This document shows positions 2,191 through 20,000 of a stretch of DNA of 20,000 bases, in pieces. Source of the stretch: an uncultured virus (IMG/VR IMGVR_UViG_3300035698_023758) (Duplodnaviria; Heunggongvirae; Uroviricota; Caudoviricetes); IMG/VR virus record IMGVR_UViG_3300035698_023758; one strand, 5' to 3'. The stretch's first letter is position 1; every line of letters starts with the position of its first letter. The position numbers were made by a program, and so were the translations under genes. The notes beneath the pieces were generated by a model. It searched no databases. It had not been told where the DNA came from and saw nothing but the letters and a program-made list of their open reading frames with translations.

Positions 2191-2688
2191 ATGATTAATC
2201 CAGCGGGTAATTTGTTCTTTAAAGATGATTACGGTGTCACTTATTTAGTTGAGTGGGAAACCGTAAGAGATCTATTAGATATAACGACTACAACAAAACA
2301 ACCATATGTTTGGGGCGAAGAAGATCAAGCATATGTTAAAAATCGCGTATTATTCAAGCGTGGTGTAATTACAGTTGAAAGACAAATTTTAAAAACATTG
2401 GAAAATGGATACGCTATCATAGCTGAGGGTGCATCACAAATCTGTGACTTCATACAGATGAATTTTCCATGTGAAACGGGACCATCTGATAATTTTACAT
2501 ATCATTTAAATTGTGCTATTGAAGATGATGTATTATTTAAAGTTTCGGATGGCCCACATTGGGCTGATGTAGAAGTTTTAAGCGACATCGACGCGGTCTG
2601 GGGGATTGTTGATTCAGATGGATCTCCTGGAGATCTAACATCAACCGGTGGTGTTATACCCTTAGAATGGATTGATGTCTGGACATAA
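2191..2688 (+). CDS. Hypothetical acidic protein, 165 aa
   Basis: Clean ORF preceded by GTAAATATA; no recognisable motif. Confidence 0.7.
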   Translation: MINPAGNLFFKDDYGVTYLVEWETVRDLLDITTTTKQPYVWGEEDQAYVKNRVLFKRGVITVERQILKTLENGYAIIAEGASQICDFIQMNFPCETGPSDNFTYHLNCAIEDDVLFKVSDGPHWADVEVLSDIDAVWGIVDSDGSPGDLTSTGGVIPLEWIDVWT

Positions 2689-2730: not shown

Positions 2731-4458
2731 ATGAAAATATCATTGACTATATTATTTATAATGCTTTGTGCAACATGTAACGCACAAAAACCGGATTTCA
2801 ATTTAGTCACCGGGCAAGAAATAAATAATAACTCCAATACAGTAACAGGAGTGCCAACACCAGCCGACGCTGTTGCCCTAGCTGTGGCAGATCTGGGTAA
2901 AATGACCCAAGATATAAGACCATTCCAAAGATACATTTGGATACCAGAACCATCAAAAGCCAAAATAGGGGCAATATCCTACACATTAAATTTAGCATGC
3001 TCAAGAGCATCAACAATAATAAAACCAGCCATACTCGGCAATGGCCAATTAATAAGATGTGACCTACGATCACTCGCTCCAAGAGACGGCCAATTAAATG
3101 AAATGATCAAATTATGGGAAAGTTTCCAATTTGAGCCATACTTTCATATTACAAAATCATCAAATAGCATATTACCAGTAAACGCCGTTACAGTGGAACC
3201 AGTGTTGGGAGATCCGGTAGGATCAATACGATTTAATATCGATGACCAGCAATGGATGAAGACTCTTGACAACACATTCTTAGTGTGGGACGGTAATGAC
3301 TGGATTATCACGCAAGCACCAATCCAATTTTCAAAATCACAAGTGTCAACGTATGGTGCACATTGTGGATTAGAACAATCTGTTATACTACAAAGTTTGA
3401 CACAATCAAATGCCGCAATAGTGAGATATGATTATTTCTTGACTAAAGCATTAAGCACAACTAACGGTGGAATGTATTATGACTTTGTTGGGATAAAGTC
3501 AAATCCATCCGGTAAGTCAGCTCAATCAGCATTTTTAGAATCACTTGGTGCTAATGAGAAATTAGTGGAATCACTGCGGTCAGACCAAAGAGCAGCAATG
3601 TTTAGATCAAACGTGACCGGCAAACCAAGAAGAATCGATGCATTTTATGGTGTTGGGGTAAGACCAAGCAGCGGTACTGGTCTTATTACAATAACATATG
3701 ATTTAAGTGATGAAAATGTTGACCCACGATCTGACCCAATACGAAACTTGTTGGATTTCAAAGACAATGCTAGGGAAGTTATTGCTGAAAGATCAAATGG
3801 ATTGCATGTATTCGCATTATTTGATAATAATGGTGGGTTACAAGATGTTGCCCCGGATAATATTGTAAAAGATCATACCGTTCCTGCTCCTCATACTGCT
3901 AGATTACAACCGGCTATTAGTTGTATTCGGTGTCATGCGGCTAGTGAAGGATTTCAGCCATTTGAAAATGATGTCCAAAAGATGCTTTCTGGATTATTAG
4001 ATGTTTTTGGGGATCTTGATAGTAAGTCTTCTGTTCCAGATACATTAGATAGATTAGCTGGGTTATATGCTGGTGATCTTAGCAAACCACTTAGAAGGGC
4101 TAGGGATGATTATAATTCTGCGATATTTAGGGCAACTGATGGGATGGGTGCTACTAGTGTTGGGAATATGGTGGCTGATATTTATGGTAATTATAACTAT
4201 AATTTAATTGATGCTTACACTGCATGTTTAGAGCTTGGTTATGATGTTCCGGAAAAACAGGCACATCAGTACCTTAATCAATTGGTTCCACCATTAAACA
4301 GGGATTCTATTGGAATTAGCCCTGAAGATCCTATTATTGGTGCTTTAAAGGCTGGTTTAAAAGTTAATAGATATCAGTTTGAACAGGTATATGCTGATCT
4401 TGCATTTAGAGCACTTCAAACACGTAAAGAACAAAATAAACAATCCACACAAAAATAA
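2731..4458 (+). CDS. Secreted single-CxxCH (heme c) protein, 575 aa
   Basis: Sec-type signal peptide MKISLTILFIMLCATCNA|Q. The block DNAREVIAERSNGLHVFALFDNNGGLQDVAPDNIVKD...ISCIRCH resembles an uncharacterised bacterial monoheme family recalled from Planctomycetes and other bacteria. Confidence 0.75.
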   Translation: MKISLTILFIMLCATCNAQKPDFNLVTGQEINNNSNTVTGVPTPADAVALAVADLGKMTQDIRPFQRYIWIPEPSKAKIGAISYTLNLACSRASTIIKPAILGNGQLIRCDLRSLAPRDGQLNEMIKLWESFQFEPYFHITKSSNSILPVNAVTVEPVLGDPVGSIRFNIDDQQWMKTLDNTFLVWDGNDWIITQAPIQFSKSQVSTYGAHCGLEQSVILQSLTQSNAAIVRYDYFLTKALSTTNGGMYYDFVGIKSNPSGKSAQSAFLESLGANEKLVESLRSDQRAAMFRSNVTGKPRRIDAFYGVGVRPSSGTGLITITYDLSDENVDPRSDPIRNLLDFKDNAREVIAERSNGLHVFALFDNNGGLQDVAPDNIVKDHTVPAPHTARLQPAISCIRCHAASEGFQPFENDVQKMLSGLLDVFGDLDSKSSVPDTLDRLAGLYAGDLSKPLRRARDDYNSAIFRATDGMGATSVGNMVADIYGNYNYNLIDAYTACLELGYDVPEKQAHQYLNQLVPPLNRDSIGISPEDPIIGALKAGLKVNRYQFEQVYADLAFRALQTRKEQNKQSTQK

Positions 4459-4501
4459 GACAGAAAGACCGTATTTCAAATCGAGATCGCGGAGAAAAAT
4501 C

Positions 4502-5386
4502 ATGAAATCGATCGTAAAGTGTTGTTGCCGAATCTTAATCGTTAATCTGCCAATTGTTTTGGCAATAGCAATTATAACTTCTAGCAATTATGACAGTGCT
4601 ACAGCGGGTAGAAGATCAAGATGCTTCACTAGTTGTCAGCCCGTACAGCATGTACAGCATGTGCAACATGTCGCACAGCCCGTTATCCAAAGACAAGTAG
4701 AAACAAAAGTTGAAAATCAAACAACTGTTGTTAATAATCTTGTTGGGATTCCAGTTCCTGTAACATACAATGAGCCCATAACCGCTCAAGGTTCAACAGT
4801 TTATGGGTACTCAGCATTATCTGATTCCTACAGTAACATTGATCTAGGATTGCTTTATAACCAAGCGGCAAGACTTACTGATCAGGCACAACAATTAGCT
4901 GGTCAAGCCCACATGGATTTTTCAGCAATTGTTCAATCTGAAGGTCAGAACAGAGCAGAAGTTGCTAAAATTCTTGCTCAGGGTCAAGCGGCAAGGGAAG
5001 CTTTATCAGCATCTCGTGGCAGTGAATTACAACCAATCACTAAATCATTTGCATTTAAGGTTAGCCAGGGTTCAAATGGCGAATTAAAAGTAGAAAAAAT
5101 TGAAAAGACTTCTGGATCTGAACCAGAGAATTTTGATTTGGCTACTCCTGATATTAAAGATGTTTCACAACTTTTAAACAATAAGTGCGTTTCTTGTCAT
5201 AATTCTAATAACGCTCAGGGTGGGTTAAACCTATTAGGTGAAATCTCTGAAGATCAGCAAGATTCAATATTAAAGCGTGTCACAACCGATAATCTTGACA
5301 AAAGAATGCCAAGAAATTCGGATGGTGCTGGACAAAAATTGTCCATAGACGAATTAAGTGTATTATTTCGAGCTATGGGGAAATAA
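4502..5386 (+). CDS. Secreted protein with C-terminal planctomycete cytochrome c (PSCyt1-like) domain, 294 aa
   Basis: ATG 4502 with GGAG RBS; signal peptide ending SATA|; Q/H/V-rich segment; Ala/Gln-rich helical region; then LLNNKCVSCHNSNNAQGGLNLL...SILKRVTTDNLDKRMP (CxxCH, GGLxL, distal MP Met ligand). Confidence 0.82.
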   Translation: MKSIVKCCCRILIVNLPIVLAIAIITSSNYDSATAGRRSRCFTSCQPVQHVQHVQHVAQPVIQRQVETKVENQTTVVNNLVGIPVPVTYNEPITAQGSTVYGYSALSDSYSNIDLGLLYNQAARLTDQAQQLAGQAHMDFSAIVQSEGQNRAEVAKILAQGQAAREALSASRGSELQPITKSFAFKVSQGSNGELKVEKIEKTSGSEPENFDLATPDIKDVSQLLNNKCVSCHNSNNAQGGLNLLGEISEDQQDSILKRVTTDNLDKRMPRNSDGAGQKLSIDELSVLFRAMGK

Positions 5387-5400
5387 TTAAGGAGATTAAA

Positions 5401-5796
5401 ATGAAATTGGTTATGGTTGTGTTATTGGTTATGGTTGCGTTATTGGTTGCACCATTTGATGTGCAAGCACAGTGTGGTGGTCAGGCATTTATTCAACAGA
5501 ATGTTGGTGGTCAGGCATTTATTCAACAGAATGTTGGTGGTTTACAATGTGTAAATGGTGTCTGCTTTCAGCAACAGCAGGTATTTGTTCAACCACAATC
5601 TGTTGGATTTTTTGCTGCTAGTCAGCCGTCTTTCATTTCGCGACAATTTGTGAGCCAACCAGTTGCTTTCAACAGGGCAGCTGTTGTTGTGCCTCGTGTT
5701 CAAAGAACAGTTATTAGGAATAATGGTCGTGTTCAGAGAGTTAGAACAGTTAACCGTGGTGTACGAAGAAGCCGACAGGCAATAATCATTCGTTAA
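5401..5796 (+). CDS. Small secreted Gln/Val/Arg-rich low-complexity protein, 131 aa
   Basis: AAGGAG RBS; signal peptide ending VQA|; QCGG...CVNGVC motif; Arg-rich tail; last gene before a terminator. Confidence 0.8.
   Translation: MKLVMVVLLVMVALLVAPFDVQAQCGGQAFIQQNVGGQAFIQQNVGGLQCVNGVCFQQQQVFVQPQSVGFFAASQPSFISRQFVSQPVAFNRAAVVVPRVQRTVIRNNGRVQRVRTVNRGVRRSRQAIIIR
5475..5541 (+). repeat. Perfect 30-bp in-frame tandem duplication (GGQAFIQQNV x2)
   Basis: tggtggtcaggcatttattcaacagaatgt at 5475-5504 and 5505-5534, plus a 7-nt partial third copy. Confidence 0.95.
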
Positions 5797-5815
5797 TTTA
5801 AAATGTTGAATATAT

Positions 5816-5849
5816 AAGAGCCCTATTAATTTTTGTTAATAGGGCTCTT
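5816..5849. terminator. 14-bp-stem hairpin, probable intrinsic terminator of the cytochrome operon (possibly bidirectional)
   Basis: aagagccctattaa-tttttg-ttaatagggctctt, starting 20 nt after the stop at 5796. Confidence 0.8.
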
Positions 5850-5910
5850 GTTGTATTTAAGACGGGCCACTTTCTTTGTTTTTCCTTAAATTCCCTATCC
5901 GATGAAACTT

Positions 5911-7237: not shown

Positions 7238-7942
7238 ATGAAAATCAAACATGTTACATTAACTGGGGCAGACAACCAATCATCAATAGAAAAAATGCTC
7301 GAATTACACAATGAATTCACGTTCATTGAGTGGGGAATTTTATTCTCAAGTTCAAGCATGGGATCTCCAAGATACCCTACACATGATTGGATTAAAAAAC
7401 TATGTTCACATAACATGCGATTATCGGCCCATATGTGTGGTAAATTAGTCGATGACGCTATGAAATTTGGTACTATCATAGATGAAGACATTAAACTTTT
7501 AGTCGAATCTTTTACCCGCGTTCAATTTAATCTTTCTAAGGGAAGATTAAAAAAAACCCTATCTAATCCAGAATGTCGTATTTGGGATTTTGATTTTTCT
7601 GATATCATATTTGGCGGTGCATTTAGTCAATGCATGAATCTATTAGACCCCATATTGCTAGAACAAAGAAAAATTAGCCCATTATTTGATTCATCTGGTG
7701 GTAGGGGAGTGTTATCAGAATGGCCAAAAATCCCCAATCACAACTTTGGACCATTATGGTGTGGATACGCTGGCGGTCTTGGGCCAAACAACATTGTCGA
7801 TGAATTATTTAAAATCGAAGAAGCTGTTGGTGATGCTGAAATCTGGATAGACATGGAAAGTAAAATACGAAATAGTAATAATGAATTAGACTTTGATCTT
7901 TGTGAAAAAGTCTTAAAGGCTATTGAACCATTTACAAAATGA
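7238..7942 (+). CDS. Phosphoribosylanthranilate isomerase (TrpF)-like TIM-barrel protein, phage type
   Basis: Motifs VTLTGAD, EWGILFS, PRYP, SAHMCG, LFDSSGGRG, GYAGGLGPNN, WIDMESKIR parallel TrpF DS..GGTG / LAGGL.PEN / DVSSGVE. Confidence 0.8.
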   Translation: MKIKHVTLTGADNQSSIEKMLELHNEFTFIEWGILFSSSSMGSPRYPTHDWIKKLCSHNMRLSAHMCGKLVDDAMKFGTIIDEDIKLLVESFTRVQFNLSKGRLKKTLSNPECRIWDFDFSDIIFGGAFSQCMNLLDPILLEQRKISPLFDSSGGRGVLSEWPKIPNHNFGPLWCGYAGGLGPNNIVDELFKIEEAVGDAEIWIDMESKIRNSNNELDFDLCEKVLKAIEPFTK

Positions 7943-9514: not shown

Positions 9515-10900
9515 TTAAAGATTATAAATAAATCTAGATTTTGGGAGCCCAAGCACTTTTAGTAAATGTTTGGACTTTGCATAATCAATTTCAGACACTC
9601 CGATTTTTTTAGCAGCATTCCAAATTGATTTTTTATGATACATTTTATTTTCTCTTCTATGATAGTACCAGTAGCTTTCCACAGTAGTGCCATCTAATAC
9701 CCAATTGCTGGCTTTATAAATAGTACCATCATGCCCAAAAGTAGCATCAGAAAACGATACTAACAATTTAACATGTTCAACATTTGACTTAATATATCGT
9801 ATGCAACGGGATATAAACCAGCTGCTAAAATTTTTTGCTTGATATTGTGGGTGAATAATTAATCTGGTTAATTCTAAAATCTGAAAATACTCAATATTTT
9901 GTTTTTTAGCCGTTTCTAAACGAGTTGGCTTTGCAAAAACAGCACAAGCAATTACTTTAGAGCCAAATTTAACTCCAAGACACATTCCAGATCTTCCATG
10001 TCCCTGATAATGCCAATTTTGCAATAATGCTTTTGCATCTTTCCAATTTATAATGGAGATAAACAGACTAGTAAAGTCAAATTTTGGTGGGTTAATAGAA
10101 TTTAATATTTTGTACTTTACTAATTCAGTATTTTCTAATTGATAATCCCAAAGAACTAACAATTTTTTACCATACTTTCTTGCTAGTTTTTGTTTGTATG
10201 AATCTCTTTGTCTTCGTTGTTTTTTAGTGTGCCAGTATGACCCTTGTATTTCGACAAGAATTGTGTCATTTTGTAGGCCAAAGTCATATCTGAATTCTTC
10301 TAGTGCTGGTTGTGTTGTATATTCAACGGCACATTCATCTAAAATCTCGCGAAATTTCACTTCTAAAGAGCTGCCACCAGATTTAATGCCGCGTTGCACA
10401 GCTTCTTTCCATTCTTTTGTTCCCTGTGTGGGCGACAGTCCTTTTCTTTTTAAAAACGCTTGCACTGATTGATAGGGCCATTCAAATTTTGCAGCTATTT
10501 TATATGATGATAATTTTTCTTCTTCAGACAATCGAATAATTTCATCTTGAAGATAAACTGGTATTACGCTTAAAGTGTCTGCAGCACTCCTAGCTTTATG
10601 ATTTTTATTGATATGATATCTTATAGTTTCTGGGTCAACAGAGTATTTTTCAGATATTGATGGCATTGACAGACCGGAGCTATATAATATTATTATGTTT
10701 GCGATATCTTCATCAGTTAATTTTTGAGCTTTTCTGTTACTATCTGTTTTGATACCTTTTTTTTCTAATATTCTAAATACTGTTCTTTTACCAATCCCTA
10801 GTTTTTTAGATATTGTATGGCCACCAAATTTATTATTAACATACAATTCAACAACCAAAGAATCTCTCTCATCTTTATTATCCCATTTCAAATTATTCAT
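9515..10900 (-). CDS. Fusion: 3x HTH + DUF559/Vsr-like PD-(D/E)xK endonuclease + Mom-family GNAT-fold domain, 461 aa
   Basis: HTH repeats (HTISKKLGIGKRTVFRILEKKGI; SMPSISEKYSVDPETIRYHI; SSYKIAAKFEWPYQSVQAFLKRKGL). Nuclease SSLE...YTTQ...RYDF...LVEIQGSYWH...RDSYK...LLVLWD. Mom-like NWHY...CAVF...ILELTRL...KNFSSWFISRC...LVSFSD...GHDGTIYKASNW. Confidence 0.82.
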   Translation of the reverse strand: MNNLKWDNKDERDSLVVELYVNNKFGGHTISKKLGIGKRTVFRILEKKGIKTDSNRKAQKLTDEDIANIIILYSSGLSMPSISEKYSVDPETIRYHINKNHKARSAADTLSVIPVYLQDEIIRLSEEEKLSSYKIAAKFEWPYQSVQAFLKRKGLSPTQGTKEWKEAVQRGIKSGGSSLEVKFREILDECAVEYTTQPALEEFRYDFGLQNDTILVEIQGSYWHTKKQRRQRDSYKQKLARKYGKKLLVLWDYQLENTELVKYKILNSINPPKFDFTSLFISIINWKDAKALLQNWHYQGHGRSGMCLGVKFGSKVIACAVFAKPTRLETAKKQNIEYFQILELTRLIIHPQYQAKNFSSWFISRCIRYIKSNVEHVKLLVSFSDATFGHDGTIYKASNWVLDGTTVESYWYYHRRENKMYHKKSIWNAAKKIGVSEIDYAKSKHLLKVLGLPKSRFIYNL

Positions 10901-10919
10901 GATGACCAAATTTCGGGTC

Positions 10920-10927
10920 TATTTATA
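10920..10927 (-). promoter_or_regulatory. TATAAATA T4-late-like box upstream of the nuclease-Mom fusion
   Basis: tatttata at 10920-10927, between the upstream terminator and ATG 10900. Confidence 0.5.
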
Positions 10928-10932
10928 GTAAA

Positions 10933-10960
10933 AGAAAAGGCCCTGTTATGGGCCTTTTCT
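10933..10960 (-). terminator. Intrinsic terminator after the 585-aa gene
   Basis: agaaaaggccc-tgttat-gggccttttct, 11-bp stem with A/T tracts on both sides. Confidence 0.82.
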
Positions 10961-11027
10961 CATAAAAGTATCAAATACTTAATCAAATGTTTAAAAACAA
11001 AAGAAAACAAAAAGAAGTACGTCTTCT

Positions 11028-12785
11028 TTAACCTTGCCAACTATCACCATTGAACCACATAAATCGTGTTCCGTTATACCATCCATCACCGAATTTTGGG
11101 TCACGTCCTAATAATATTTTAAGCCTTGGCAAAACATTGGTATTGTAAAATTCTGGGTCACTTCCAAGATTAGCTGTTTTGATTGGTAGATTAATTATTC
11201 TATGGTTTAATGCACCAGTATATCCATATCTATCAATGTTAGAATTGGCTGATATGCCGGATTGTGCCTCAAGATCAATAGTGTTACCAAGACCCTGATC
11301 CGCTTCGGTAACAAATCTGTTGTCATATCCCGGTTGAGATGGTGAATTTAAACGAGATGTGCTACCAAGAAGTGCTTGTGACTGCCCAATTGTCGGCGTG
11401 TATTTTGGTGTTCTACTAATTCCAAAAGAGCTAATTCTTGTAGAAGTTTGAGAAAATGATATATCTGCTGGTGTTTCTGCTATCGAATCAAATTCATCAA
11501 AAAAATCTTGGATCTCAGAGGTAGTACCACCCCAAATGGATGATAAAACAACGTGGCCTTTACCAAATCCTTGTTCCCATTGGGTAGAATCAGCACCTGT
11601 TTTTAATAGCAGATTATCTATCGAGATAATTTCTATTATATCACCGGCAGTGTAACTGCTTAGCAGATCTAATGATGCAAATTCTATACCTTCAGTGCTT
11701 GGTGTTCCACCTGTTTCAGAGTCTGTTACATTGTATGTTGAAAAATAAAATCGTAATTGGCTTCCGCTAGAATCTACTCTCTCTATTCGTGACACCCATA
11801 CTGGGTAGTATAACCCACTTGAGTCTCCAGTTGGTGAATCTCCAGCTGGGGCTGTTATATTGAATTCTCGGAACATTGCCTGCGGTATTGTGATGTTTTC
11901 AGTAGATTGCCTATTAGCGTTAGCATCATATGGATAATTAAATGAGTTTAACCATGTTTGAACATCACTATCAAGCTCTGGGATAGCATTCCATGAGCTA
12001 TCTGTTAATAATCCTGTCCCATGACTAAATGCTAAGGTTGAATAGTCATTTGTTACCGCAGACCCACCTGGAATTGTGTCTACTATTTCATAAATTGCTG
12101 GTGAATCGTAGAATCCATCACTATTTGAATCAGTTAGGTCTGCTGGGGGTTCTAGTAAGTCTAAAAACGCTTGGACTGTTGTTAAGTCGGTGTCGAGTGT
12201 TTTGAATGTTAAGAATCCCGCTACAGTTTCGGTTTCTCCTGAGTCTATTGCTGTTGATTCTTCTGTTGTGGTTACAACAGTTAGCCTTGTTGGTTGATAT
12301 GTTAATGTGCTACCAATATCATAGTCGGCTGAGAATATTGCTACTTCTGTTGCTGATCCAATAGCGTTGGCTGTGAATATTAACTTTAACCATCCATCAT
12401 ATCCGTTGGTGGTACTGTTTTCTCCAGCTATTCTTTTAATTTTTGATAATCTTAAGTTTTCCCATTTTTTGGGCATTGAAGCGTGCATGTCCCAGATCAA
12501 CTGAAGTGGGACATCAACTTCTGTCGTTCCGCTTGCCACTCTTGGTTGGACAACATATGGAAATAATGCTTGGTGTCCAAGTCTTAATTGTAAGTTATCA
12601 GTAGCTTTTGCTAATACTAATTGTCTAACTGTTAGATCTGCTAATGGCCTATTTAGGGCTTCAAAGAATACTGGGTCCTTGGCTGTAAGCCATCTGATAT
12701 TTAATGTATCATCGAGGCCAGTAAAGTTATCAAACAAAGTCCCAGGGGATTTTGTTGGCACTTTTGTTGGACTAATAGTTGGCAT
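11028..12785 (-). CDS. Putative virion structural protein, 585 aa, T/S/D/G-rich
   Basis: Long ORF with acidic beta-rich composition; N-terminal LNRPLADLxxRQLVL motif resembles tail-fibre/baseplate N-termini. Function is inferred. Confidence 0.6.
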   Translation of the reverse strand: MPTISPTKVPTKSPGTLFDNFTGLDDTLNIRWLTAKDPVFFEALNRPLADLTVRQLVLAKATDNLQLRLGHQALFPYVVQPRVASGTTEVDVPLQLIWDMHASMPKKWENLRLSKIKRIAGENSTTNGYDGWLKLIFTANAIGSATEVAIFSADYDIGSTLTYQPTRLTVVTTTEESTAIDSGETETVAGFLTFKTLDTDLTTVQAFLDLLEPPADLTDSNSDGFYDSPAIYEIVDTIPGGSAVTNDYSTLAFSHGTGLLTDSSWNAIPELDSDVQTWLNSFNYPYDANANRQSTENITIPQAMFREFNITAPAGDSPTGDSSGLYYPVWVSRIERVDSSGSQLRFYFSTYNVTDSETGGTPSTEGIEFASLDLLSSYTAGDIIEIISIDNLLLKTGADSTQWEQGFGKGHVVLSSIWGGTTSEIQDFFDEFDSIAETPADISFSQTSTRISSFGISRTPKYTPTIGQSQALLGSTSRLNSPSQPGYDNRFVTEADQGLGNTIDLEAQSGISANSNIDRYGYTGALNHRIINLPIKTANLGSDPEFYNTNVLPRLKILLGRDPKFGDGWYNGTRFMWFNGDSWQG

Positions 12786-13310: not shown

Positions 13311-13634
13311 ATGAAAACTAATGTAAAAGATCCAGATAAAAAAGATGATCAAAAACCAAAAAAGAATCCGCAATACTCTATTATATTATTTAACGATGAT
13401 GACCATACTGGCGTATACGTAGTTGAATTACTAGTGAAAGTATATAGGCACCAATTGAAAAAAGCTATTGAGTTAACAAATAATATTGATCAAAAAGGAC
13501 AATCGCTAGTATGGGTCGGGTCCAAAGAACTTGGAGAGTTAAAAATTGAACAGACCAAGAACTTTGGCAATGACCCATACGGGGAAAACTTGGTTAAATA
13601 TCCTATGATATGTAGTTTAGAGCCACTTTCATGA
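13311..13634 (+). CDS. clpS: ATP-dependent Clp protease adaptor ClpS
   Basis: PQYSIILFNDDDHTGVYVVELLVKVY...AIELTNNIDQKGQSLV...GELKIEQ...SLEP matches the ClpS core. Confidence 0.9.
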   Translation: MKTNVKDPDKKDDQKPKKNPQYSIILFNDDDHTGVYVVELLVKVYRHQLKKAIELTNNIDQKGQSLVWVGSKELGELKIEQTKNFGNDPYGENLVKYPMICSLEPLS

Positions 13635-13636
13635 TA

Positions 13637-14569
13637 TTAGATCAATACGAAGTCGTTTGGTTGTTTCCCATTGATTGTAACATCATCCAAGCTATCAACA
13701 AGTATTCTTAATTCAATCTTACCGCTTGGATCGGTTGGATCGCTTGGATCGGTTGGGGGGTTTGATGGCGTGGTTGTTGCCGGACCATATAATTTTTGAA
13801 TTCTTGGAATATCATCATTTACTTGTGGTTTAGTAATTGATGGAGTATAGTATGGTGCCATAAGAGCACTTTGTTGCTGTGAATGATCAAGACCAAGCAT
13901 ATGACCGAATTCATGCGTAGCAACATTCAAATAAAGAATACCACGATCTGATGCATTTTTGATCCATGTTTCATCAAGATCAAATCTCATCAATAATTGC
14001 CCATTATAATTCCCACCCTGTGGAAGATATGCCCAAGCTAATGTGTTACCTGGACCATCAAAATTCGCAGATTTTCCTCTACCAGTTGATAGTATTAATC
14101 TGGCATCTGCTGTAGATTGTACTCTTTCAAATTCTAAATCAGCAACTGCTGCCCAGTTGCTAAAGGCTAGTGCAATAAGGTCATCTTGATCCGATTTGCT
14201 TATTGCTTGAGTAGTGTAGCTTTCAATATAATATGTTAATTTTTTAATACCCCATTTAGATGATAAAGGACCAGCAGCCGCAGCCATTCTATAATCAGGG
14301 CAACCGCATCTTGGGGTGGTTTTCATTGCTCTAACGGTGACTTTATCAATCACTCCAGTAATCTTTAAGCCAAATGTTTTTTGAAATTGTTTTACGTTCT
14401 TTTTAAAATTATCCTCAGTGAATTTTTGAATTTTATTTGGGTTAATATAATAATGGTCAATATAATTTAAAGCATACTTTGTTTCTGTTTCAGATAATCC
14501 ACTATTATCTGCAACTGTTTTTACATTTTGTTTTGTGACCGCAAGTGTTGATTTTGTTACTTTTCTCAT
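13637..14569 (-). CDS. Matrixin / matrix metalloproteinase (peptidase M10A) with PG-binding-like prodomain and cysteine switch
   Basis: VKQFQKTFGLKITGVID (PG_binding_1-like), PRCGCPD (cysteine switch), KWxxKKLTY, FDGPG, HEFGHMLGLDHS (HExxHxxGxxH), ALMAP (Met-turn), P/T/D/S linker, short C-terminal module. Confidence 0.93.
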   Translation of the reverse strand: MRKVTKSTLAVTKQNVKTVADNSGLSETETKYALNYIDHYYINPNKIQKFTEDNFKKNVKQFQKTFGLKITGVIDKVTVRAMKTTPRCGCPDYRMAAAAGPLSSKWGIKKLTYYIESYTTQAISKSDQDDLIALAFSNWAAVADLEFERVQSTADARLILSTGRGKSANFDGPGNTLAWAYLPQGGNYNGQLLMRFDLDETWIKNASDRGILYLNVATHEFGHMLGLDHSQQQSALMAPYYTPSITKPQVNDDIPRIQKLYGPATTTPSNPPTDPSDPTDPSGKIELRILVDSLDDVTINGKQPNDFVLI

Positions 14570-14647
14570 TTTAAGTTCCTATCGGATGATTGGTAATTAT
14601 TGTTTAAACCCACCATTATCTTTAATTACTCATTAAATGGATTAAGA

Positions 14648-15004
14648 ATGGATACATTACCTGTGATAAATTGTGATGGATGTGGTGCCTGTTGTGAGAA
14701 AATGGGCAGTCCACCTTTTACTAAATTAGAAATAAAGGCCCTCCCACAAGATTTGCGTGAAGAAGTGCTTAAATATAATAAAGTAAAATATAAAAGAGAA
14801 GAAGACGGATTACCATGTTATTGGTTTGATACAGAAACAAAGAAATGTCAGAATTATGAGAACAGACCTTTTGTCTGCGAAGATTTCAATGTGGGTGAAA
14901 TTGCTTGCTTATATTGGAGAAGAAACGCCAAATTAATAACCGATAATGAATTATTTGAAATGACTAATATTTTGAACAAAACAGAAAAAAACAAAAATTC
15001 TTAA
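14648..15004 (+). CDS. YkgJ-family CxxCxxCC cysteine-cluster (Zn or Fe-S) protein
   Basis: CDGCGACC...PCYWFD...CQNYENRPFVCEDF...C; ATG 14648 preferred over TTG 14600. Confidence 0.88.
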   Translation: MDTLPVINCDGCGACCEKMGSPPFTKLEIKALPQDLREEVLKYNKVKYKREEDGLPCYWFDTETKKCQNYENRPFVCEDFNVGEIACLYWRRNAKLITDNELFEMTNILNKTEKNKNS

Positions 15005-15609: not shown

Positions 15610-16014
15610 CTATCTCGTAAAGTTAATAATCCCTCTATTATTAACAGAGAAGGATTGTTTAATATAACCAGTAAGCCTCTTTTTTAATACTCTAGAAGGC
15701 ACCGTAGAATATTGTATTTCTTTGGTTTTAATATTTTGAATATTTTGGTTAAATTTATGCTTTCTAAACAAATTAGTTTGGTCAATTCTAGGAGCAATAC
15801 TTATTGACTCTGAAAGCATTTCCCATTGCCTCTGTAGTGCTAATTCTTGCTCAATATCATATTCCTGTTGCTCAAGAGGTATTACGTTTTGTTGTTGAAC
15901 AATAACCTCAACATTATTAGATATCTGTGTTTTATCTTTACAAACAAAGCAATAATCATTTGCAAATAAAATCGATACTGGTAGCATCACTAATATAAAT
16001 GTAACATATCTCAT
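15610..16014 (-). CDS. Secreted Gln-rich protein with N-terminal YCxxC, 134 aa
   Basis: Signal peptide MRYVTFILVMLPVSILFA|, then NDYCFVCK. Confidence 0.72.
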   Translation of the reverse strand: MRYVTFILVMLPVSILFANDYCFVCKDKTQISNNVEVIVQQQNVIPLEQQEYDIEQELALQRQWEMLSESISIAPRIDQTNLFRKHKFNQNIQNIKTKEIQYSTVPSRVLKKRLTGYIKQSFSVNNRGIINFTR

Positions 16015-16016
16015 TT

Positions 16017-16529
16017 TTAATACCTGCGTGATATAAACGGGCGTGGGAGTTGAGGTGATTGTTGTTTGATTTGTGTCTGTGGTTTAGATTTATTTTCTTG
16101 TATTATTTTTTTGGTTGTGGTAGTGTAACTAGATGCCTTACTTTCCTGAATGCCCTGATTTATAATAGTTGCCTCTATATCAGTACCAGAAGTCACCACA
16201 TTTTGTATAAGAAATGGTTGTGATTCTTCTTGATATTTAACCAACGGTTGCTGTATTCTTTGTTTTAGCTGCAATTTTGGTATGTTATTTGAAAATTGAA
16301 ATCTTCTACGCAATGGTTGTCTTATATCCTCTGGTATTAAAAACTCCATCGGAGCAAGTTGAGGTGGGTAAATAATATTATTTTCAACGCGGGTTTTAGT
16401 TGACACAGACGTTGTATTAGTTACAACAACTTTTGGTGGGCAATCATAACAATATGATGATTTTTTAGATCCATACCCAGCTGCCTCAAGATTTATTGGA
16501 ATTAGCAAAAATACTATAATATATTTCAT
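16017..16529 (-). CDS. Secreted Gln/Pro/Thr-rich protein with N-terminal YCxxC, 170 aa
   Basis: ATG 16529 with AAGGAG RBS; signal peptide MKYIIVFLLIPINLEA|, then SYCYDCPP. Confidence 0.75.
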   Translation of the reverse strand: MKYIIVFLLIPINLEAAGYGSKKSSYCYDCPPKVVVTNTTSVSTKTRVENNIIYPPQLAPMEFLIPEDIRQPLRRRFQFSNNIPKLQLKQRIQQPLVKYQEESQPFLIQNVVTSGTDIEATIINQGIQESKASSYTTTTKKIIQENKSKPQTQIKQQSPQLPRPFISRRY

Positions 16530-16688
16530 CAAATTTCTCCTTTTATCTATATTTGATATAATTAGCATTTCTACAGATATATACATTAAGAAGAACGGGG
16601 GCGTCGTAACCTTTCAATTGATCGTTTTCTTCTTACAAAGCTGGTCCACCCAGGTCTTTTTTATGATAGCATGTTCATCTGGGTCGAA

Positions 16689-19610: not shown

Positions 19611-20000
<390 letters not shown>

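Follow-up and report, generated by a model that had tools for sequence, protein, structure and literature searches.

The window analysed here is a stretch of 20,000 nucleotides from an uncultured virus of the class Caudoviricetes (IMG/VR record IMGVR_UViG_3300035698_023758). It carries a cassette of three genes, designated g1, g2, and g3, two of which encode proteins with a single CxxCH motif, the candidate attachment site of haem c. This cassette is a real, undescribed module that recurs in dozens of unrelated phages, and it corresponds to a bacterial protein with two haem sites, itself unstudied, that has been split. On balance, the three genes probably form one phage transcription unit that would deliver a two-haem module to the periplasm of the host, where it would sense or turn over a redox-active ligand. 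The source phage is tailed, and the sequence is probably a fragment of a large phage.

Organization of the Cassette

The three genes are co-oriented on the plus strand, and the open reading frame (ORF) listing and the sequence give intergenic gaps of 43 and 14 nt. The elements of the cassette are as follows.

2731-4458, plus strand: g1, 575 aa, with the signal-like N-terminus MKISLTILFIMLCATCNAQ
4502-5386, plus strand: g2, 294 aa, with a signal-like N-terminus
5401-5796, plus strand: g3, 131 aa, with the signal-like N-terminus MKLVMVVLLVMVALLVAPFDVQA
5814-5851, plus strand: intrinsic-terminator-like hairpin closing the cassette, with 17 pairs and a 4-nt loop, followed by a T-rich tail

This arrangement agrees with the first-pass annotation, which was made from the sequence alone and had described three closely spaced, co-oriented genes with signal peptides and a closing hairpin. 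The assessment of signal peptides used visual inspection and a simple rule of hydrophobicity; all three N-termini have a basic residue, then a hydrophobic stretch, and then a small-residue site, in the style of Sec signals. The single CxxCH that had been noticed in each of two proteins was likewise recovered, as SCIRCH in g1 and as KCVSCH in g2, where RMP follows 35 residues on. The chance expectation, calculated from the Cys and His content of each protein, is 0.0013 for g1 and 0.0028 for g2.

A Shine-Dalgarno sequence, AAGGAG, is located upstream of g3. Terminator-like sites number 9 in the region against 2.6 +/- 1.6 in shuffled sequences, while promoter-like sites are not enriched over shuffles (14 against 16.0 +/- 4.6). 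No tRNA genes were found in the window. The public record of g1 is located on a 61.6-kb contig, and its gene call (P0001, 565 aa) begins 10 codons downstream, which cuts into the signal peptide; the N-termini of homologues agree better with the start ATG at 2731.

Linkage of the Genes and Their Viral Setting

The cassette was collected from 29 loci (L001-L029), of which five lie in genome bins of five unrelated phyla and 24 come from IMG/VR. A single-protein pattern scan of IMG/VR gave no confirmed locus, and an alignment-based scan then gave these 24. Two pairs are duplicates: L004 and L021, where a bin contig is identical to an IMG/VR contig, and L015 and L019. Hidden Markov models (HMMs) of the g1 and g2 families were run on all ORFs of the 29 loci. 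In 26 of them g2 was found downstream of g1 on the same strand, with CxxCH present every time; the exceptions are L002 and L019, whose sequences stop less than 400 nt past g1, and L020, which has a partial g2 at its end. A small ORF of 80-180 aa, signal-bearing and rich in V/F/G/Q/R, comes after g2 in 23 of 25 loci, the case of L005 being doubtful. The genes thus co-occur elsewhere, as the first-pass idea of an operon required. CxxCH is invariant in all 120 aligned homologues of g1 and in all 26 of g2.

The loci are mostly viral contigs of 14-408 kb with GC contents of 0.36-0.66, and they carry capsid, terminase, and tail genes. In loci other than the window, the cassette is flanked by HK97-type capsid genes (DUF6260/Linocin_M18), terminase, and tail terminator genes. 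The same trio is present in an uncultured 595-kb phage, the sole match among GenBank phages, with a g1 identity of 25.5%; at the DNA level the cassette has no match to GenBank phages. On the left flank of the window cassette lies a P2 gpI-like baseplate gene; its match is weak in the window (E = 0.005), and the L006 orthologue clears the cut-off with 25.4 bits. The right flank encodes a virion protein of phrog_3758 (E = 1.9e-24). Four IMG/VR contigs (146-408 kb) keep the order of baseplate gene, upstream gene, g1, g2, and virion protein, at protein identities of 44-59%. With phage genes on both sides and this shared synteny, the contig is viral, as had been assumed, and the cassette borders are not chimeric.

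Over 23 loci, the GC content of g1 follows that of its flanks (r = 0.96), and therefore the genes appear to have been long resident in each lineage. Long residence had earlier been suggested from the AT-rich codon usage, and the correlation fits that suggestion.

The Large, Predicted Monohaem Protein g1

At least 259 relatives of g1 were found in the protein collection, and 120 were aligned. In the 576-aa translation starting at 2728, the motif has its two Cys at positions 399 and 402 and its His at 403. The predicted structure is confident (pLDDT 93.2, pTM 0.89) and can be divided as follows.

Residues ~144-207: SH3-like small barrel insert, with an SH3_3 match in 2 of 23 members
Residues ~243-454: beta-sheet and CxxCH haem region
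After the haem region: helical C-terminal domain

No known family accounts for this protein. A Foldseek search with the model against PDB and BFVD gave nothing at E <= 0.001, and the g1 profile gave nothing at E <= 1 against PDB sequences. Pfam, PHROGs, and NCBIfam returned nothing at E <= 0.01, and PADLOC nothing at all. When Pfam was searched at E <= 10 with 23 homologues, the matches were SH3_3 (two), CAP (one), and otherwise noise. One relative, P0106, has a CAP domain fused to the g1 C-terminus.

Downstream of the g1 motif, no Met or His is invariant in the 120 aligned homologues. Because no conserved sixth ligand is seen nearby in the sequence, the g1 haem probably has five ligands and leaves a site at which a small molecule (NO, O2, or peroxide, for example) could bind. 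The predicted haem pocket, built on a beta-sheet, may resemble that of cytochrome c'-beta and cytochrome P460 (e.g., 7ead, 8brk, 7s5o, 6hih, and 6hiu), which have a beta-sheet haem fold with a C-terminal CxxCH helix. This likeness is coherent but weak, and sequence comparison does not support it: with an alignment of 11 sequences from Planctomycetota genes, hhalign against the P460/c'-beta family (PF16694) gave a probability of 9.9% over 11 columns around CxxCH, there is no Pfam match, and the assignment was rejected at the sequence level.

The PSCyt1-like Protein g2

The g2 family comprises 531 cluster representatives at E <= 1e-3. The model of the window protein has a pLDDT of 74.8, with a single 57-residue helix and a well-modelled C-terminal domain. 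Its parts are as follows.

Order from the N-terminus: signal-like N-terminus, Cys pair, disordered linker, QGxTxYGYS segment, helix (residues 115-171), beta-hairpin, cytochrome domain
Residues 219-292: monohaem cytochrome c domain, with CxxCH at 229-233 and Met-Pro at 269-270

As judged from sequence profiles, the C-terminus of g2 is a class-I cytochrome c domain. The family profile matches solved cytochrome c subunits, CcoP and others among them, with E-values from 7.7e-6 (6hwh_M, the best) to 5e-4. In a set of 150 homologues, conservation is at least 90% at every one of the five motif positions (C, C, H, M, and P), and in 24 of the 26 g2 loci Met-Pro lies 29-38 residues past CxxCH. The QGxTxYGYS segment is nearly invariant among the homologues as well.

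The first-pass annotation had recognized in g2 the signature of PSCyt1. The elements of the signature, CxxCH, a GGL-type loop, and Met-Pro, are indeed present, but the match to Pfam PSCyt1 (PF07635; E = 1e-3) reaches 20.1 bits against a gathering cut-off of 22. Because the score falls under the cut-off, g2 is described here as PSCyt1-like and not as a member of PSCyt1. Such sub-threshold cytochrome matches are all that Pfam gives; PHROGs and NCBIfam contain nothing at E <= 0.01, and PADLOC nothing. Foldseek returned only cytochrome rows, none of them significant (best E = 0.6). The long helix and the QGxTxYGYS segment have no known relatives in structure searches: the VIA structure search was swamped by coiled-coil matches, and the Atlas yielded no usable match to the part of g2 outside the haem domain.

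Bacterial Proteins Combining Both Haem Domains

A profile search for g1 was performed across 301 Planctomycetota genomes. The first-pass annotation had named both IMG/VR and Planctomycetota genomes as places to search for the gene set. IMG/VR gave the 24 loci above; a phage-type g1 was found in only one of the 301 genomes, the bin that gave L001. Seven Planctomycetota genomes contain remote g1 matches instead (E 6e-9 to 6e-4). These cellular relatives are exported, measure 583-815 aa, and contain two CxxCH, the first in an N-terminal PSCyt1 domain and the second at residue ~430-450. Seven of nine have a PSCyt1 match at E-values between 1.6e-9 and 3.9e-5, one has a weaker match at 0.0089, and one has none. 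The profile-profile comparison shows that g1 is homologous to this family in a body of roughly 450 residues (hhalign 99.7%, E = 7e-27, 400 columns, SCxxCH included); the alignment covers g1 residues 45-561, and the SH3-like insert is absent from the cellular family. The g1 protein itself has one CxxCH and no PSCyt1 match, and the phage counterpart of the N-terminal domain is found on g2. Since the PSCyt1-type domain is on g2 and not in the g1 polypeptide, the phage pair is a split variant. That bacteria combine a g2-type haem domain with a g1 body in a single chain is the strongest reason to think that the two phage proteins act jointly. As a lead only, a separate protein-atlas search agrees with this and also points to Myxococcota and Pseudomonadota.

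The cellular relatives are labelled "Planctomycete cytochrome C" and "c-type cytochrome domain-containing protein" in their sources. Some are labelled "serine/threonine-protein kinase", a name that arises by transfer. Among the best 120 of 199 cellular homologues (E <= 1e-10), 18 have an N-terminal protein kinase, with lengths of 1010-1141 aa, and one has caspase and FHA domains. One kinase example shows the order of kinase, single membrane helix, PSCyt1, and g1 body, and therefore the haem module is the outer part of a Ser/Thr kinase.

A Peptidase_C14 gene is located within ~8 kb in seven of nine annotated cellular loci. Six of the seven encode WD40-caspase proteins, and the four that were checked (L046, L048, L051, and L052) directly adjoin the haem gene; the seventh is a caspase-FGE-sulfatase gene adjoining the haem gene in L050. 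A clear signal-like N-terminus is seen in five of the seven caspase proteins. TPR-CHAT genes are present at two of the nine loci. Taken together with the kinase fusions, these contexts suggest that the fused form serves bacteria as a kind of input module or sensor.

Several other genes were observed around the cellular haem genes. Giant proteins combining WD40 and Peptidase_C14 are encoded beside the haem gene or within ~8 kb of it in L044, L046, L047, L048, L051, and L052, and most of these proteins begin with a signal-like N-terminus. Genes for an M48 peptidase and an HTTM/vitamin-K-carboxylase-like protein also occur nearby. In L046, L047, L049, L050, L051, and L053, the gene after the haem gene encodes a conserved secreted protein of 360-430 aa that belongs to no family. 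This protein was considered as a relative of g2 and rejected (hhalign 0.1%; no Pfam family).

The Small Companion g3

The g3 protein is small and Q/V/F/G-rich, with three Cys residues and a basic tail ending in AIIIR. Its gene contains a perfect tandem duplication.

5475-5541, plus strand: 30-nt tandem duplication inside g3, 2.2 copies, 100% matches, score 134

The duplicated peptide is GGQAFIQQNV. The position of g3 is conserved across phages and its sequence is not: a homologue was found only in L008, by tblastn (E = 4e-7), and there is no match in Pfam, PHROGs, or NCBIfam (E <= 0.01) or in PADLOC. What recurs is the kind of C-terminus. Sixteen of 22 g3-type proteins end in Arg after a short hydrophobic strand, against a background of 37 Arg-ending ORFs in 331 (binomial p = 2e-11); of the remaining six, the L006 protein has a terminal Pro and the others a terminal aromatic residue (GF, GY, or PY). 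The AxA-type site of the g3-type protein is immediately followed by Cys in six loci.

Elsewhere in the window, 15610-16014 and 16017-16586, both on the minus strand, encode small, signal-bearing, Q/N-rich proteins that are family-less and g3-like in style. Each has Cys residues near the mature start (YCFVC and YCYDC).

Proteases and Other Neighbouring Genes

In 12 of the 22 phage loci scanned, a protease gene is the nearest or second-nearest gene upstream of g1. Neighbour annotation covered 110 hand-picked ORFs of the 163 with at least 100 aa, and L007, L008, and L010 were covered by family assignment only. The proteases belong to M10 in five loci (L003, L005, L009, L011, and L012, where the gene is directly upstream of g1), to S8 in five, to the papain-like class (C1) in one, and to astacin in one. 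PG_binding_1 was detected in four of the five M10 enzymes. No obvious signal peptide is seen in any of the twelve. The window has its own M10 gene, 8 kb from the cassette, with the cysteine switch PRCGCPD and no signal peptide; it is possibly a partner of the cassette. The features concerned are as follows.

2191-2688, plus strand: co-oriented upstream gene, 165 aa, lacking a signal peptide and any known family
13637-14569, minus strand: matrixin (M10) peptidase, Peptidase_M10 E = 5e-36, PG_binding_1 E = 7e-7

The upstream gene has no match in Pfam, PHROGs, or NCBIfam, and its family (F4) keeps the same position in the four closest jumbo-phage relatives (L006, L007, L008, and L010). It may be co-transcribed with the cassette. 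A ClpS homologue (13311-13634, plus strand, E = 1.7e-15) stands tail-to-tail with the M10 peptidase gene.

Further observations concern the surroundings of the cassette in other loci. A signal-bearing trypsin-like gene comes after g3 in L006. In the jumbo phage L010, a radical-SAM gene (10917-11951) is located directly after g3. In L026, a gene for a CAP (cysteine-rich secretory protein) domain (10749-11306) comes after the cassette. Small hydrophobic ORFs are present within or beside the cassette in L004, L005, L015, and L018.

The rest of the window includes a 464-aa fusion protein (9515-10909, minus strand) in which a Mom-like DNA-modification domain (Pfam Mom E = 6.5e-28, phrog_1384 E = 7e-30) is combined with helix-turn-helix domains and a stretch weakly similar to REase_MTES_1575; it resembles a Mom protein in the style of homing endonucleases. 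A CxxCxxCC zinc/iron-chelating domain protein (PF03692, E = 5.6e-11) is encoded at 14600-15004 on the plus strand, and a weakly PRA-isomerase-like protein (E = 1.9e-4, under the cut-off) at 7238-7942 on the plus strand. An open-ended ORF at 19611-20000 on the minus strand opens with a long Pro-Glu repeat (PEPEPE...).

Proposed Function and Alternatives

In the favoured explanation, g1 and g2 would be exported by Sec and supplied with haem c by the host maturation system. The g2 protein would carry a His/Met cytochrome c domain of the electron-transfer type on a long helical stalk, and g1 would provide a ligand-accessible haem. The g1 protein and the g2 haem domain would act as one unit, as in the fused bacterial relatives. 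The phage module would most likely sense or turn over a small redox-active ligand at the envelope, as is suggested by the occurrence of the fused form as a kinase ectodomain. The g3 protein, which is small, basic, beta-prone, and secreted, would be a fixed companion, and proteolysis would be a recurrent functional neighbour. The layout put forward by the first-pass annotation, a large monohaem protein with a His/Met carrier and a small low-complexity partner, is consistent with these data.

Several points weigh against this explanation. The haem binding of g1 and g2 is deduced from sequence, and the PSCyt1 score of g2 stays below the cut-off. His383 and His389, which precede the g1 motif and are nearly invariant in 23 sequences, are a possible sixth ligand. 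The cellular contexts come from nine loci of one phylum. The phage proteases (M10, S8, C1, and astacin) show no obvious signal peptide, and their contact with exported proteins is hard to explain. PHROGs and PADLOC contain no match for the three proteins, so that nothing there ties the cassette to a process. The predicted complex of g1 (residues 36-576) with g2 (residues 80-294) scored 0.00 against a mark of 0.32, which is evidence neither for nor against an interaction.

The bacterial contexts also allow the phage module to be read as a decoy or hijacker of a death or stress pathway of the host. The phage would secrete a copy of the periplasmic two-haem input module of host Ser/Thr kinases and WD40-caspase or CHAT proteases, and this copy would absorb or falsify the signal and thereby block or time an abortive response. 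This is unlikely, even with the cellular homologues being outer domains of kinases and adjoining secreted WD40-caspases and TPR-CHAT proteins, and with the phage form looking like an input module minus any output domain. An anti-phage action of the cellular systems is unsupported, PADLOC having no model for them, and the phage and cellular families are only remotely similar, while a mimic need not drift so far. The GC range of the loci implies that many hosts may lack such systems, and g3 and the phage proteases would be left unexplained. A wider proposal is quite unlikely: a planctomycete-type extracytoplasmic axis would lead from the two-haem module to Ser/Thr kinases and WD40-caspase or CHAT proteins, with phages carrying a split, output-less copy. 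This copy and its small basic partner would then sense, trigger, or block the axis during infection. In its parts list at least, this axis would be a bacterial counterpart, by analogy only, of apoptosome logic, in which cytochrome c, WD40, and caspase are connected.

The recurrent proteases bring in two further readings. The cassette could be an accessory for breaching the envelope at lysis, in which the adjacent cytoplasmic protease is released at lysis and cleaves wall or envelope, g2 (with its N-terminal hydrophobic segment and long helix) and g3 act on the membranes like spanins or a disruptin, and the SH3-like insert of g1 binds the wall. The frequency of protease genes next to g1, the peptidoglycan-binding domains of the M10 enzymes, the small hydrophobic ORFs in or beside the cassette, the one long helix of g2, and the SH3_3 matches of the g1 insert all suit this reading. 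It is nevertheless rather improbable: most g2 homologues show cleavable-looking signal peptides and not anchors, g1-g3 match no spanin, holin, or endolysin in PHROGs (E <= 0.01), the window protease is distant from the cassette, and two invariant haem sites fit no known lysis mechanism. The window g3 lacks a lipobox (VQA is followed by QC), and many g3-type proteins are Cys-free, with a minority having AxAC. For the same lack of a lipobox and of a PHROG spanin match, a two-component spanin with g2 as i-spanin and g3 as o-spanin is not supported. Alternatively, the pair could be a modifier like MauG or a peroxidase. Di-haem peroxidases and MauG combine an electron-transfer haem with an open, reactive haem in the periplasm; here the g2 haem would feed or drain electrons, the g1 haem would oxidise, cross-link, or hydroxylate residues of g3 or of an envelope protein, and the protease would trim the product. 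A recurrent secreted partner with a conserved kind of C-terminus agrees with such a role, as do the radical-SAM and trypsin-like genes after g3 in L010 and L006. No sequence link to CCP/MauG or NF040606 was found, however, and no such fold is among the matches listed. The sequence of g3 is not conserved, many copies lack Cys, Tyr, or Trp patterns, and the variable protease class argues against a specific leader peptidase, all of which make this role improbable. NF040606 ("di-haem cytochrome c peroxidase"), which matched a cellular homologue at E = 0.003, was itself rejected by hhalign (4% and 0.9%).

It is very improbable that the CxxCH motifs are metal or disulfide sites rather than haem sites, or that cellular DNA has been wrongly joined to phage DNA. 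Haem attachment is deduced and five family members are in bins named after bacteria, but a profile match connects the g2 domain with c-type cytochromes of solved structure, and the cellular relatives pass the PSCyt1 cut-off. The five bins belong to unrelated phyla and one of their contigs is identical to a viral one (L004 and L021), which points to mis-binned phage DNA, and the cassette is flanked on both sides by phage structural genes common to four viral contigs.

Novelty and Meaning

No description of this module was found in the literature searched, and nothing linking phages with PSCyt1 turned up there. Phages seldom carry cytochromes of the c type, and where they are known to do so the genes are copied from host pathways. 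Here, a pair of haem proteins and a small partner have been kept through wide phage diversification, over GC contents of 0.36-0.66 and in contigs of up to 408 kb as well as the 595-kb phage genome. The g1 protein has no clear solved structural relative and is named by no family library. The kinase outer domains and caspase-like neighbours of the bacterial relatives suggest that bacterial signalling includes a haem-based input module that has yet to be studied. Ordinary experiments can now address the role of the "planctomycete cytochrome" modules, including what they sense, and the reason for a phage to have such a module in the periplasm of its host.

Comparison with Known Systems

Auxiliary genes for periplasmic redox proteins are known from phages, such as soxD in phages of sulfur oxidizers (PMC8190135). 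A preprint on phages of ammonia oxidizers mentions host-type cytochrome bc1 and Ccm genes and, in the passages covered, not the family described here. Genes of the soxD type copy known host pathways, whereas the cassette matches no known pathway, spans GC contents of 0.36-0.66, and is far from cellular genes.

The g2 protein is like PSCyt1 and the class-I cytochromes c, including 6hwh_M of the actinobacterial bc1 complex, in its CxxCH, its GGL-type loop, and the Met-Pro ~35 residues later. It is unlike them in being sub-threshold and phage-encoded and in being joined to a long helix and the QGxTxYGYS segment. Di-haem CCP and MauG share with the phage pair the logic of a His/Met haem and a reactive haem, but the pair belongs to none of their Pfam or NCBIfam families.

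The closest counterparts of the phage pair are the unnamed cellular two-haem proteins of ~580-600 aa, which are exported and, like the phage pair, combine a PSCyt1-type haem domain with a g1 body. The cellular form is a single polypeptide that begins with the haem domain, whereas the phage form is divided between two genes and has this domain at the C-terminal end of g2. The cellular form is often fused to kinase, DUF4384, or caspase domains, whereas the phage form is without an output domain.

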